A program made the translations under genes and the position numbers. Below the pieces are notes generated by a model that did no database searches, was not told the origin of the DNA, and was given only the letters and a program-made list of their open reading frames with translations. A stretch of 64,000 nt of DNA, taken from IMG/VR virus record IMGVR_UViG_2531839524_000004; one strand, given 5' to 3'. This document shows, in pieces, positions 59,746 to 63,485 of the stretch. Numbering within the stretch: position 1 is the first letter of the stretch; each line of letters starts with the position of its first letter. The DNA comes from a virus (taxonomy: Duplodnaviria > Heunggongvirae > Uroviricota > Caudoviricetes).

Positions 59746-59820
59746 GATGGTGTAGCTCAGCGGTAGAGCAGTTGGCTGTTAACCAACTGGTCGGTGGTTC
59801 GAATCCACCCACCATCGCCA
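59746..59820 (+). tRNA. tRNA-Asn (anticodon GTT)
   Basis: Manual cloverleaf: acceptor GATGGTG/CACCATC, D-arm GCTC..GAGC, anticodon loop CTGTTAA, T-loop TTCGAAT, 3' CCA. Confidence 0.8.
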
Positions 59821-59825
59821 ATTTA

Positions 59826-59912
59826 GGGGAGTTAGTCCGTAGAGGTAGCGGTGTAGACTGTAAATCTACTGTCATGGCGACTCGGGTGGTTCGACTCCAT
59901 CACTCCCCACCA
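59826..59912 (+). tRNA. tRNA-Tyr (anticodon GTA), long variable arm
   Basis: Acceptor GGGGAGT/ACTCCCC, anticodon loop CTGTAAA, long variable arm, T-loop TTCGACT, 3' CCA; D-arm non-canonical. Confidence 0.6.
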
Positions 59913-59916
59913 AATT

Positions 59917-59992
59917 GCCGGTTTAGCTCAGTTGGTAGAGCGCCTGCCTTGTAAGCAGGATGTCAGCGGTTCGAGTCCGTTAACCGGCACCA
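59917..59992 (+). tRNA. tRNA-Thr (anticodon TGT)
   Basis: Acceptor GCCGGTT/AACCGGC, D-arm GCTC..GAGC, anticodon loop CTTGTAA, T-loop TTCGAGT, 3' CCA. Confidence 0.8.
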
Positions 59993-60209
59993 ACACAACA
60001 GGAAAGAGCATTGAAACCCGCCGAGACTGCCCTGTTTTAAGCGTAAGTCCGTGCAAACGTCATACAGTGCTCTTTTCGTTGTGGTTGATGCGCAGACTGA
60101 TGCGCGGAAAGAAATGCCCCAGCGACACACGAGGCGAGTTCACACACTGCAATGCAGTCAGTAGCCGGGGTCGCTAAGCCGGAGATCAGTACCGGTAACC
60201 ACAACAATT

Positions 60210-60296
60210 GGAGAGTAGGGAGCATGGTGCTCAAGCGGTCTTGAAAACCGTCCCATTGTGCAAACGATGATGGTTCGATTCCATTACTCTCCGCCA
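60210..60296 (+). tRNA. tRNA-Ser (anticodon TGA), long variable arm
   Basis: Acceptor GGAGAGT/ACTCTCC, anticodon loop CTTGAAA, long variable arm, T-loop TTCGATT, 3' CCA. Confidence 0.65.
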
Positions 60297-60488
60297 GACA
60301 CAGCGTTGAGCGGTTTGGCCTTTTAATCAACTCGATTAAGACTCCGCTAACATAAACCAGACCGCTCAACGCTGTGATAGATAATTACGGCAGACGTTCT
60401 TAACCATAGCTTGCTAACATCCTAGCAACACTTTTTTCAGCGCAAAATTCAAAGGGGCTTCGGCCCCTTTTTTGTTGAACAGTGCAAT

Positions 60489-61751
60489 TTACTTTGCATA
60501 GTCGCCCAATTTTAATATTTCGCGCTTATATTCATTAACCATGCTACTGGATTCAGTATAAATTCGATTTAAAAGATTATCGTTATCTTTATTTTCATTT
60601 ATCTTAATTAGTGCTAATTTATATTCATAGTCATCAAATGCCACAATTAAATGGTGGCCTGGGATTATATCTTCGTCACTCTTAAAGTATATATCTTCAA
60701 GTATGTAATCTAGTTGATTAGATTTTCTTTTCTCGATGTAATCTTCAGCCATAGCTATTACATCATTCCTGTCATTTAACCTGTTTTTTTCGGAAGGCAC
60801 ATCTTCGTAATGTTGCACGATTGAACAACCAATAAGGCGTGGGATGTAAACGTCAAAATGAGTAACTCTATCATTCGCGGTTTTAAGTAGTTCCTCAAAG
60901 TAGTTTCTTACATGTAAAGGCAACTTCTCAAAGTAATCATTAATTATAGGAGAACAAGGAGTTTTATAATTCATAAGAACCGACGGTACGAGCTTTGGGT
61001 GTCGAAACATCCAGTCCCTTTTAACGTCCGATGGAACATAATAACTTTTAATGATATTATCAAAATAATTTATCATTCGAGATTTGAATATTTTGTTGAA
61101 TCTAAGGTTTATGAATGTATCCAGATAAGGCATATTTGAATAAGCATCATCAAAAAATATTTCATCATTGAAAAAATCATATTTATTCAATAAACAACAC
61201 AGTTTTTCCGAATTAATATGTTCACAATAATCGATTTTTAATCCAAAGATAGCAATGATCAACTTCATCTGAGGTGGGATTTTAAAAATTAATTGTGACA
61301 CATACGCTCTTTTTTCCTTGAGACATTCCCCATCAATATAAAATGAACCATCCACATACTCAAATATATTAATAATATGCTTCACATACTGTATTACCTC
61401 ATGCTGTCTTACCAATGGATAATATAGTCTATGTAACTCATCGCTGTTTAAATTAATTTTGTGTTTATCGATAATTTGTTTTGCAAGAAGACATAACTCA
61501 TCATGTTGATTTAATAAGGAATCAAACCATTGTTTAAATGCACTCTTTCGCATTTCGAACAATGATTCAGTTGTTAATTGAAGGGCTGAAAAAGCTGCTT
61601 TTGCACTTTTTCTCGCTTCGTAGGCATTCCATGCTGTTGCTATAAAAGCAAATGCTGTAGCCAATGTTCCAACAGTTTGACCATTTAAAACAACCCAATC
61701 CCAAAAAATGACGGTGAGCAGTAGTATAATAATGAAAATTAAAAAAGGCAT
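60489..61751 (-). CDS. hypothetical AT-rich membrane-anchored protein (cargo gene)
   Basis: ORF track, 420 aa; two N-terminal hydrophobic segments then a large soluble domain; markedly AT-rich versus flanking genes. Confidence 0.6.
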   Translation of the reverse strand: MPFLIFIIILLLTVIFWDWVVLNGQTVGTLATAFAFIATAWNAYEARKSAKAAFSALQLTTESLFEMRKSAFKQWFDSLLNQHDELCLLAKQIIDKHKINLNSDELHRLYYPLVRQHEVIQYVKHIINIFEYVDGSFYIDGECLKEKRAYVSQLIFKIPPQMKLIIAIFGLKIDYCEHINSEKLCCLLNKYDFFNDEIFFDDAYSNMPYLDTFINLRFNKIFKSRMINYFDNIIKSYYVPSDVKRDWMFRHPKLVPSVLMNYKTPCSPIINDYFEKLPLHVRNYFEELLKTANDRVTHFDVYIPRLIGCSIVQHYEDVPSEKNRLNDRNDVIAMAEDYIEKRKSNQLDYILEDIYFKSDEDIIPGHHLIVAFDDYEYKLALIKINENKDNDNLLNRIYTESSSMVNEYKREILKLGDYAK

Positions 61752-61925
61752 GTATGTATTTCACTCTACTAACTATAAAATATTAGGCTAATGTTAACCA
61801 AACAATGCCTTAATTAATAGATTGATCGAGGCTTTAATAGCTTTATAATGCAGACTGTAAAGATAAGTATGCACATACCTATCTTCTTTGTAAGTAAAGT
61901 TGCATATCAATTCTATGAGGTAACA

Positions 61926-62171
61926 ATGACGATCACTATCTACGGACGAGATAACTGCTCATACTGCAAACGTGCGGTCGAGCTGGCGAAGCAACTAAAG
62001 GGACATGGCTACGGTGATTATGAGTACATCGACATCACCACTGCCGGTATCGACAAGGAAAAACTAAGTGAAATTGTTGGTAAACCGGTAGAGACTATCC
62101 CCCAAGTGCTGATCGATGGCCAACCGATTGGCGGATACACAGAACTGGCTGCATACGTCAGCACCCTCTGA
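61926..62171 (+). CDS. glutaredoxin
   Basis: Active site CSYC and C-terminal ...GKPVETIPQVLIDGQPIGGYTEL resemble E. coli GrxA (from memory); start at MTITIYG after RBS GAGG; ORF-track start 61848 is an N-terminal extension. Confidence 0.75.
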   Translation: MTITIYGRDNCSYCKRAVELAKQLKGHGYGDYEYIDITTAGIDKEKLSEIVGKPVETIPQVLIDGQPIGGYTELAAYVSTL

Positions 62172-62180
62172 TTTTAACGG

Positions 62181-62203
62181 CTCACAGGAGCCGTTTTTAT
62201 TCC
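62181..62203 (+). terminator. intrinsic terminator after the glutaredoxin gene
   Basis: acggctc-acag-gagccgt followed by TTTTAT. Confidence 0.6.
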
Positions 62204-62251
62204 CACCAAACTCACTCCCGTTTCCCTTAAAATTCAAAAAACAACGTCAAA

Positions 62252-62282
62252 ATGATTCCATACCTACTATGTATGGAATCAT
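62252..62282. promoter_or_regulatory. perfect inverted repeat ATGATTCCATA-N9-TATGGAATCAT upstream of the integrase
   Basis: 11-bp arms; the half-site AATGATTCCATACA also occurs at 58527-58540 and 59539-59552. Confidence 0.5.
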
Positions 62283-62381
62283 TACTGAAAATGAGTTACT
62301 TTGACTCTTGATCCTATAAGAATCTATGCCTAATATACTGTTTACTTATACAGTGAATCGGCGTAACTCGGTGATTGTCAT

Positions 62382-63485
62382 ATGAAAAATAGCTTTGACA
62401 GAGCACGCGCTGCGGAGAACACCTCAAAAGAGGCGATTGAGTATCTCGAAAGAGCATCTCAAATGCAGGCCGTTATGATCTCGCAGGTTAGCAATGATAT
62501 GAGATTCTCGGACGCATTCATGTTATTTACTCGCTTATCTCTGCTGATAACAAGACGTCGGCCGGAGATCGCTGTTCATTGTATTTTGATACATGTTTTG
62601 CCGCACATTGCTGATGTAAAAGTAAGTGACATTAATAGGTTCATGGTGAACCAACTGGTCAACCCCCTAATACTGGATGGCAAAATTGTTATGGGCCGCC
62701 GCGTTTTCTCTCTGATGAAGCAGTTCCTTAGCTGGTGTGCCTTCCAGGGGATGATCGACGTGTCACCGTTAAACGATATGTCACTAAACAAAGTTGCCGG
62801 TGGCGCAAAGCCCACGCCTCGCGAGCGGAAGCTAACCGACGCAGAGGTATGGGTGTTCTGGAATATATGGGACTACTTCAATGTGTGCGCTGGTACAAAA
62901 TGGGCGGCCAGGCTATGTCTTGTATCCGCAAGACGACCTGACGAAGTACTGCGGGCTAAAAAAAGTGAGTTCAACCTCCAGCGTGGGGTTTGGAATCAAG
63001 GCAAGAGAAACAAATCAGCCCGTGAGCATTCTCTGCCTTTAAGCACATTAATGCGCACATGCATTGAAGAGTTATTCGAATATGGTAAAGGCAGCCAGTG
63101 GCTTGTGCCTTCGAATAAAAAAATCGGGAAAGATCTTCCGATGTCTAAAGTGGCAATAGCCCAGGCATTACGCCGTATCCTGGAACGACCAGAACTGATG
63201 GAGCTTGAGCCATTTACACCACGAGATTTGCGTCGTACTGCGCGTAGTTACTTCCCAGCATTAGGCATAAGCCAGGAGGTATCACGTAAAATCATGAACC
63301 ACAGTCTTGAGGGGATAGATCGGGTCTACGACCGGCACGATTATATGGACGAGATGCGAGACGCCTTAGAAAGTTTCTCGACGTACATCGCATCAATCGT
63401 AGAGCAACCGGATTTAGACGAAATTGACCACAAATTCAAGGGAGATCGTCTATCGACAGAGCTTATTCGTGTAAATTTTTCATAG
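62382..63485 (+). CDS. tyrosine-type site-specific recombinase (integrase)
   Basis: 367 aa; C-terminal catalytic-domain residues in expected order (...TPRDLRRTARS...HS...VYDRHDY...). Confidence 0.85.
   Translation: MKNSFDRARAAENTSKEAIEYLERASQMQAVMISQVSNDMRFSDAFMLFTRLSLLITRRRPEIAVHCILIHVLPHIADVKVSDINRFMVNQLVNPLILDGKIVMGRRVFSLMKQFLSWCAFQGMIDVSPLNDMSLNKVAGGAKPTPRERKLTDAEVWVFWNIWDYFNVCAGTKWAARLCLVSARRPDEVLRAKKSEFNLQRGVWNQGKRNKSAREHSLPLSTLMRTCIEELFEYGKGSQWLVPSNKKIGKDLPMSKVAIAQALRRILERPELMELEPFTPRDLRRTARSYFPALGISQEVSRKIMNHSLEGIDRVYDRHDYMDEMRDALESFSTYIASIVEQPDLDEIDHKFKGDRLSTELIRVNFS

Follow-up and report, generated by a model that had tools for sequence, protein, structure and literature searches.

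What does a single AT-rich gene, turned against the direction of its neighbours, do between the transfer RNA (tRNA) genes and the integrase gene of a tailed virus? The question is raised by a stretch of 64,000 nucleotides (the window) from the IMG/VR virus record IMGVR_UViG_2531839524_000004 (Caudoviricetes), in which the gene at positions 60489-61751 encodes a protein of 420 residues. A first-pass annotation, made from the letters alone, had guessed at an abortive-infection or exclusion factor. The comparative analysis described here lends support to that guess by way of homology to the putAbiC family, an architecture resembling that of AbiC, placement in a variable cassette, and defence genes beside relatives in other genomes. 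The protein very probably belongs to the putAbiC superfamily, and it is moderately likely that the gene is a single-protein anti-phage module, of the abortive-infection or exclusion type, carried as exchangeable cargo by a phage-plasmid.

The gene itself is as follows.

60489-61751, minus strand: coding sequence of 420 residues, very probably a divergent AbiC/putAbiC-superfamily protein, PHROG 18168 (open reading frame and profile comparisons)

The reading frame is intact and starts with ATG; the start codon is backed by an invariant M1 and a near-invariant P2 among homologues. With a G+C content (GC) of 0.314, where the window averages 0.4625 (standard deviation 0.034, windows of 1263 bp), the gene is the GC minimum among all windows of this size in the 64 kb, some 4.4 standard deviations below the mean; the GC at third codon positions is 0.28. 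It is also the sole minus-strand gene between tRNA-Ser and the glutaredoxin (grxA) and integrase genes, all of which, like the other tRNA genes, lie on the plus strand. The first-pass description of an AT-rich 420-residue frame, opposite in orientation to its neighbours and placed beside phage tRNAs (59746-60296) and an integrase (62382-63485), is therefore borne out in full.

The kinship with AbiC emerges from profile comparison. The only database match of the window protein is phrog_18168 (function unknown; E 2e-217), and a search of Protein Data Bank (PDB) sequences with it returned nothing but noise (E 0.08). A word-indexed search led to seven relatives, and an exhaustive HMMER search with a profile built from these (A1) yielded 66 cluster representatives in 1.84 billion proteins, nearly all of them 416-495 residues long. 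When 47 full-length family members were scanned individually, 35 matched PF16872 (putAbiC), a model of 80 positions with a gathering score of 22 bits; with PADLOC, six of the 47 match the AbiC model and three weakly match AbiP. In these relatives PF16872 corresponds to residues ~118-200 of the window protein. Its nearest relatives, P0007 and P0008, score 18.0 and 22.0 bits, and canonical members reach 32-36 bits; among the sequences recovered with a window-subfamily profile are P0024 (E 3.6e-35) and P0033 (E 7.3e-21), and each of these passes the Pfam threshold.

The family falls into two clades, a canonical one (alignment A5, 31 sequences) and that of the window protein (A3). Compared by hhalign, the two match over 396 columns with a probability of 100% and E 7.7e-50; on this comparison the homology of the window protein to the putAbiC-domain proteins of proteobacteria extends over its full length. 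The canonical clade can in turn be aligned with a lactococcal AbiC clade (A4, all members PF16872-positive) over 60 columns (probability 76%, E 2.3e-5), as can the pooled family (A2; E 1e-4, 59-60 columns, residues 117-175 of the window protein). One canonical member cross-matches both hypothetical genes of SSU5-type plasmids and genes named 'putative phage abortive infection protein' by the Prokaryotic Genome Annotation Pipeline (PGAP); the PGAP records reached in this way come from about five plasmids of Pantoea and Erwinia.

Canonical members carry a nearly invariant polar constellation, namely QHN82-84, H116, S120, R124, H128, K131, K148, R155, S156, N160, D161, N169, Q185, E195, H196 and N264. 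The window's clade retains the hydrophobic skeleton (Y122, Y150, F193, F194, Y262) and a juxtamembrane motif described below. As a pattern, the canonical residues read QHN ... H ... S.YMR...H..K ... K.Y....RS...ND ... N ... Q ... FFEH, and part of it is common to lactococcal AbiC. The constellation resembles a site for catalysis or ligand binding, and may offer a lead for the mechanism of AbiC; no discussion of it was found in the literature searched. That literature also contained no mention of putAbiC or PF16872, nor of the family in Enterobacterales.

Other affiliations were considered and set aside. The HEPN motif is R-x4-6-H; the canonical core has R-x3-H instead, and the window protein has no such motif at all. 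A paper on 'Abi_C' of Staphylococcus aureus concerns the C-terminal HEPN domain of AbiJ, which is unrelated. For a two-helix membrane effector of the SLATT type, the only signal was SLATT_1 in the relative P0009, at E 0.23 and 12 bits against a cutoff of 26.3.

The protein can be divided into five parts.

61686-61748, minus strand: first transmembrane helix (TM1), residues 2-22 (Kyte-Doolittle hydropathy up to 2.83 in 19-residue windows; helix in the AlphaFold2 model)
61620-61676, minus strand: second membrane helix (TM2), Ala/Thr-rich, T..AF.ATAW.A, residues 26-44 (invariant T32, A35, F36, T39, A40, W41 and A43)
61464-61619, minus strand: juxtamembrane motif E-A-R-x-S-A-K-A-A and long stalk helix, residues 45-96 (invariant block ATAWNAYEARKSAKAA)
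61152-61400, minus strand: degenerate putAbiC core Y122 ... Y150 ... F193-F194, residues 118-200 (PF16872 mapping in relatives)
60492-61151, minus strand: hypervariable C-terminal half, helices and a three-stranded sheet, residues 201-420 (model confidence ~90)

An AlphaFold2 model from six sequences was unusable, with a predicted local distance difference test (pLDDT) score of 59; the model from 47 sequences, used here, has a pLDDT of 90.6 and a predicted template modelling score of 0.77. It consists of a helical hairpin, a continuous helix spanning residues 24-96, of which TM2 is part, and a globular domain that is built mostly of helices and includes a small sheet of three strands. A structure-based search, likewise proposed in the first pass, gave no specific match for this confident model in either PDB or BFVD. 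Both of the N-terminal hydrophobic segments claimed earlier are found: residues ~2-22 are strongly hydrophobic, and residues ~26-44 are less so, conserved, and helical in the model. The loop between the helices has only about three residues (L22-Q25). Lysine and arginine residues follow directly after the second segment, and by the positive-inside rule the ~375 residues beyond TM2 would be cytoplasmic, in agreement with the large cytoplasmic domain that had been proposed. The net charge of this domain spans about -14 to +12 over the family; in the window allele it is -8.5 (isoelectric point, pI, 5.78), and an acidic domain speaks against nucleic-acid binding of the AbiP kind.

Constraint is unevenly distributed along the chain. 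Mean pairwise identity within the A3 clade is 36% in TM1, 64% in TM2, 66% (the highest value) in residues 45-75, 42% in the putAbiC core and 18-22% in the C-terminal half. Among close alleles the rate of non-synonymous substitution (dN) is close to 0 in residues 45-96. For the gene as a whole, the pairwise ratio of dN to the synonymous rate (dS) is 0.29-0.33, against 0.015-0.024 for the adjacent integrase at similar dS, and its dN is 13-20 times that of the integrase. Alleles with 86-100% identity all keep the intact 420-codon frame; together with the dN/dS values, this indicates purifying selection combined with fast protein evolution. In the same slot, homologues of different genera are still conserved over their full length at identities as low as 27%.

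The DNA flanking the gene matches the ~108-kb Escherichia phages Cyrano, CMS-2020a and PhiR41_1; the DNA ligase of the backbone and its counterpart in Salmonella phage SSU5 share 91% identity; and in complete E. coli genomes the DNA of the gene is found on plasmids of ~105-120 kb only, with no chromosomal occurrence. The window therefore belongs to a phage-plasmid of the SSU5/pHCM2 type. In PLSDB, 639 plasmids can be recognised by the backbone ligase (220 in Escherichia, 188 in Klebsiella, 90 in Enterobacter, 49 in Salmonella and 43 in Yersinia), and a member of the family was detected in 134 plasmids (~21%). Among 5,426 complete E. coli genomes, 39 have the gene and 212 the flanks. A tblastn search of 50,697 phage records gave no match to the gene; an apparent contrast between plasmid and phage records was dropped, as just six distinct phage records have the backbone, and none of six against ~21% corresponds to p of about 0.24.

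A smaller form of the element was also seen. The 63.8-kb Escherichia albertii plasmid NZ_CP034165 has an allele of 86% identity in the same slot (L015, 6001-7263). Such E. albertii plasmids of ~62-64 kb retain the genes of the replication side (ligase, primase, CobT, integrase and repressor) at about 60% of the full size, and may be deleted, non-inducible derivatives of the SSU5 backbone.

Within this backbone the gene occupies a sharply bounded cassette.

60475-61925, no strand: exchangeable cassette of ~1.45 kb (conserved flanks, variable interior)
60451-60470, no strand: G+C-rich hairpin at the left cassette boundary (terminator scan; 18 nt beyond the stop codon)
61752-61925, no strand: divergent intergenic region in the cassette, 29% GC
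59746-60296, plus strand: tRNA-Asn, tRNA-Tyr, tRNA-Thr and tRNA-Ser genes, left of the gene (ARAGORN calls)
right of the gene, plus strand: glutaredoxin gene grxA (Pfam Glutaredoxin, E 6.6e-11)
62382-63485, plus strand: integrase gene

Identity with sister plasmids stops at 60472-60476 on the left and resumes at 61914-61937 on the right. Among E. coli plasmids the flanks are 96-99% identical; the interior is 68% identical, unalignable, or replaced by another gene. The hairpin at the left edge resembles a terminator on both strands, with RNA fold z-scores of -2.2 (plus) and -3.0 (minus). A direct search for repeats bracketing the cassette found none, which makes homologous recombination within the flanks the simplest explanation of how the cassette is exchanged.

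The first pass had suggested that presence and absence be compared across related prophages. Among the sister plasmids, six kinds of occupant can be distinguished in the slot: the 420-residue allele of the window; a 431-residue allele with 55% identity; a 406-residue allele assigned to the family by hmmsearch (E 5.5e-105); 398-residue alleles of Klebsiella and Salmonella, which occupy the same place with respect to the tRNAs and the phoH-gp49-grxA block; an unrelated family of soluble, AT-rich proteins of ~300 residues; and gp49 alone. Members of the ~300-residue family (L007, 1424-2314; L009, 1281-2189; L018, 6789-7703) all lie on the minus strand, have a GC of 0.29-0.32, and form alleles that are 38-59% identical; they have no match in Pfam or PADLOC. 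The slot thus shows what is expected for hotspot cargo, that is, variable occupancy between conserved flanks, atypical GC, and association with defence genes elsewhere.

This last association comes from members of the clade outside SSU5 elements. When one genome from each of 185,579 species was scanned with the clade-only alignment, only three further A3 members came to light, in Lelliottia, Siccibacter and Pantoea, none of them on an SSU5 backbone and each far below the GC of its surroundings. All three lie directly beside a known defence component: bSEFIR (E 8.8e-111), the AriA/AriB pair of PARIS (E 6.6e-40 and 6.6e-23), and a type II methyltransferase (E 1.3e-111) with a fragment of a type I methyltransferase. 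All three are core-degenerate as well, with 4-7 of the 18 polar positions.

The homology to putAbiC, the bounded cargo cassette, the purifying selection and the bSEFIR, PARIS and methyltransferase neighbours are the grounds on which we infer an anti-phage role, from kinship and gene neighbourhood. The module would presumably shield the plasmid-bearing cell, and hence the element, from other phages. In the proposed working, the N-terminal hairpin of two helices would be inserted in the inner membrane, essentially without a periplasmic loop, and TM2 would continue as a stalk helix of ~70 residues that bears the globular, mostly helical domain in the cytoplasm. The hypervariable C-terminal half may recognise a phage-derived cue. 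The conserved TM2/juxtamembrane segment, T..AF.ATAW.A.EAR.SAKAA, could be the output end, at or in the membrane, since a segment that did no more than anchor the protein should not be its most conserved part. Its output might be oligomerisation, or perturbation of the membrane or of a membrane-bound process, and the result would be a stop to late phage development, much as lactococcal AbiC lowers the production of capsid protein. The division into sensor and effector, the topology and the membrane-level output are all predictions, and confidence in any specific mechanism is much lower than confidence in the defence role.

Several observations weigh against the anti-phage reading. In keeping with the first-pass remark that the protein has no recognisable motif, it draws zero matches in Pfam, NCBIfam and PADLOC, even at E ≤ 10. 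Of the 18 canonical polar positions, canonical members keep a median of 17 and the A3 clade a median of four; the window protein keeps two, and whatever chemistry these residues perform is probably not shared by it. Compared directly, A3 and A4 do not match significantly (probability 0.8%, E 0.07 over 29 columns), and the link from the window protein to the experimentally studied AbiC therefore takes two steps, through a core of ~60 residues. The search upstream of the gene gave no convincing promoter beyond a weak minus-strand candidate (-35 at 61796-61801, -10 at 61772-61777) that fits 8 of 12 consensus positions, no better than chance. A lactococcal AbiC-like gene with 38% identity to AbiC conferred no resistance to the phages tested (PMC11381338). 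Because the mechanism of AbiC is unknown, the mechanistic part of the reading is largely conjecture. Finally, the only SSU5-type plasmid with a published anti-phage phenotype has the other slot family: curing Klebsiella Kp1604 of its plasmid p2 raised the efficiency of plating of three lytic phages by 1-2 logs (PMC8969562), and p2 carries the ~300-residue family, a type I restriction-modification system and a DUF262 gene. Crediting the AbiC-like family with this phenotype was considered and dropped for that reason.

Four other explanations have to be set against an anti-phage module. The best placed of them, although unlikely, is superinfection exclusion directed at related SSU5-type phages, with DNA entry or early establishment blocked at the inner membrane. 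The location in that membrane, the carriage as cargo in the prophage or plasmid state, the allelic diversity among near-identical elements and the strong conservation of the membrane-proximal segment would all suit such a function. Proteins of the Sie/Imm type that block injection usually act in the periplasm, however, and the predicted topology of the window protein offers no substantial periplasmic part, with almost nothing exposed beyond the inter-helix loop of ~3 residues. Moreover, members of the clade also reside in chromosomal defence islands that have nothing to do with SSU5 elements.

The variable slot next to the cassette holds YafO toxin modules in sister plasmids, and an AT-rich accessory gene with membrane helices might encode a membrane-acting toxin or addiction function that stabilises the plasmid form, or some other accessory function unrelated to phages. 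Yet no reading frame for a partner antitoxin is present in the cassette, ~79% of backbones do without the gene and show no sign of compensation, and the homology is to an Abi family; this explanation must be rated improbable.

A more elaborate idea, and a long shot, is that the protein is a non-catalytic, 'hollowed-out' AbiC that acts as a dominant-negative anti-defence decoy, co-assembling through TM2 and the juxtamembrane segment with an AbiC-type protein of the host and so aiding establishment of the phage-plasmid. It would account for the loss of 16 of the 18 canonical polar residues beside a strongly conserved membrane-proximal helix, in a gene borne by a mobile element; if true, it would mean that a defence protein has been turned into an anti-defence protein. 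The same degenerate core is found, though, in the chromosomal members beside bSEFIR, PARIS and a methyltransferase, a setting that is the signature of a defence gene, and the hypervariable C-terminal half resembles a sensor rather than a mimic. Targets also look scarce, at 66 family representatives in the proteins searched and about five PGAP plasmid records, a tally in which canonical genes on host chromosomes are not counted. A less far-fetched form of this idea would have the conserved TM2/juxtamembrane motif carry out the killing or arrest on its own, which would show how AbiC-type proteins act.

It is scarcely credible that the gene is functionless today, a decaying remnant of DNA gained by horizontal transfer: a degenerate core motif, the want of a clear promoter and a low GC typical of foreign, possibly H-NS-silenced DNA would fit, but every allele of 86-100% identity has an intact frame, every pair has a dN/dS of 0.29-0.33, and the whole length is conserved to 27% identity across genera in one slot.

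Some further features of the region may be recorded. Immediately after tRNA-Ser lies a hairpin with a 20-bp stem (60299-60376; folding free energy -41.2 kcal/mol, z -9.7) and an inner 8-bp hairpin; it belongs to the conserved backbone and has no match in Rfam. For the ARAGORN tRNA-Ser(tga) at 60209-60296, the best Rfam model is tRNA-Sec, at 44.8 bits against a gathering score of 47; this near-match is most likely due to the long variable arm that class II tRNAs have.

To the right of the gene, the cassette contains a sigma70-like site on the plus strand for grxA (61822-61849, TTGATC-16-TATAAT, 10 of 12 consensus positions), which would drive grxA where the cassette has displaced gp49; gp49, where present, points the same way as grxA and overlaps it. 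The longest grxA reading frame begins at 61848. In relatives, an 81-residue GrxA is annotated from the equivalent of 61926, where conserved DNA resumes, and this is probably the true start.

Between grxA and the integrase lies another variable slot, which has no occupant in the window (62172-62381). Elsewhere it holds a 184-residue minus-strand gene (Cyrano and other plasmids), a 202-residue gene with a YafO toxin (one E. coli plasmid), or a colicin-E1-type immunity gene with YafO (Klebsiella). The occupants compared were those of four loci.

4395-4949 of L001, 2096-2650 of L005, 2704-3732 of L009 and 688-2148 of L003: occupants of the grxA-integrase slot

Between the same two genes there is a near-perfect palindrome (62251-62283; arms of 16 nt, spacer of 1 nt, RNA fold z -6.3) that is conserved in every relative examined; it might serve as an operator, as a terminator or as a site of recombination.

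What is new here is a divergent AbiC-type variant, together with a newly delineated phage-plasmid hotspot that extends from the tRNA-Ser terminator to grxA. A full-length, divergent relative of AbiC is thereby placed in E. coli, on a common clinical phage-plasmid backbone, where standard defence annotation (PADLOC and surveys based on DefenseFinder) is blind to it: neither main slot family is recognised by PADLOC, its AbiC model (PDLC02343) matches neither the window protein nor the alleles of SSU5-type plasmids, and a DefenseFinder survey of 1,227 SSU5-group contigs lists neither AbiC nor either slot family. With its polar site gone and its strongest constraint next to the membrane, the clade represents a natural experiment, and comparison of the two clades could separate the role of the polar site from that of the membrane module. 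Since the hotspot alternates between two unannotated, fast-evolving, AT-rich families, it is also a cheap place to seek new anti-phage genes. Should the gene have no phenotype, the outcome would be an improved annotation of a hypothetical protein.

Among known systems, the closest to the window protein are the proteobacterial 'putative phage abortive infection proteins' (PF16872; for example on plasmids of Erwinia and Pantoea; the A5 clade). They are of similar size, at ~420-490 residues, and have in common with it the homology from the transmembrane hairpin to the C-terminus, the juxtamembrane motif A.EAR.SAK and the hydrophobic core of Y122, Y150 and FF. They differ in their polar positions, only two of 18 being kept in the window protein, which falls under the Pfam and PADLOC thresholds.

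AbiC was first described in 1992; under its action less major capsid protein is made and DNA replication is unaffected, a phenotype known for the lactococcal protein only. To our knowledge, the AbiC family has no solved structure and no function assigned by fold comparison. The lactococcal reference used here is the p275A homologue (L013, 19553-20569; PADLOC AbiC model, E 4.3e-133), reached through the accession NZ_CP016699; a tblastn search of Lactococcus plasmids with two canonical members gave no matches. Like the window gene, AbiC of Lactococcus lactis (Prf, plasmid pTN20) is a single, low-GC, plasmid-borne gene, and its product likewise combines two N-terminal transmembrane helices with a helical extra-membrane domain, for which there is no structural assignment (PMC13064643). 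In contrast to the window protein, it has about 340 residues rather than 420, retains the pattern S.Y.K..H..LK / Y..ILR / N, and has a basic domain (pI 9.1 against 5.8); the two can be aligned in the core only.

AbiP, which has been grouped structurally with AbiC as 'AbiC/P' (PMC13064643), is another membrane-anchored, single-protein Abi. It has a single transmembrane helix, against two in the window protein, and a domain that binds nucleic acids with a preference for RNA; the cytoplasmic domain of the window protein is acidic. The PADLOC model for AbiP does not match the window protein.

With regard to genomic setting, the nearest parallel is provided by the defence hotspots of temperate phages and satellites, for example of the P2/P4 type, in which variable cargo lies between conserved core genes. 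The slot described here differs in its host, an SSU5-type phage-plasmid, and in its position, between the tRNA cluster with its terminator and grxA. It shares with those hotspots the conserved flanks, the sharp edges, the unrelated single-gene occupants, the low GC and the reversed orientation.

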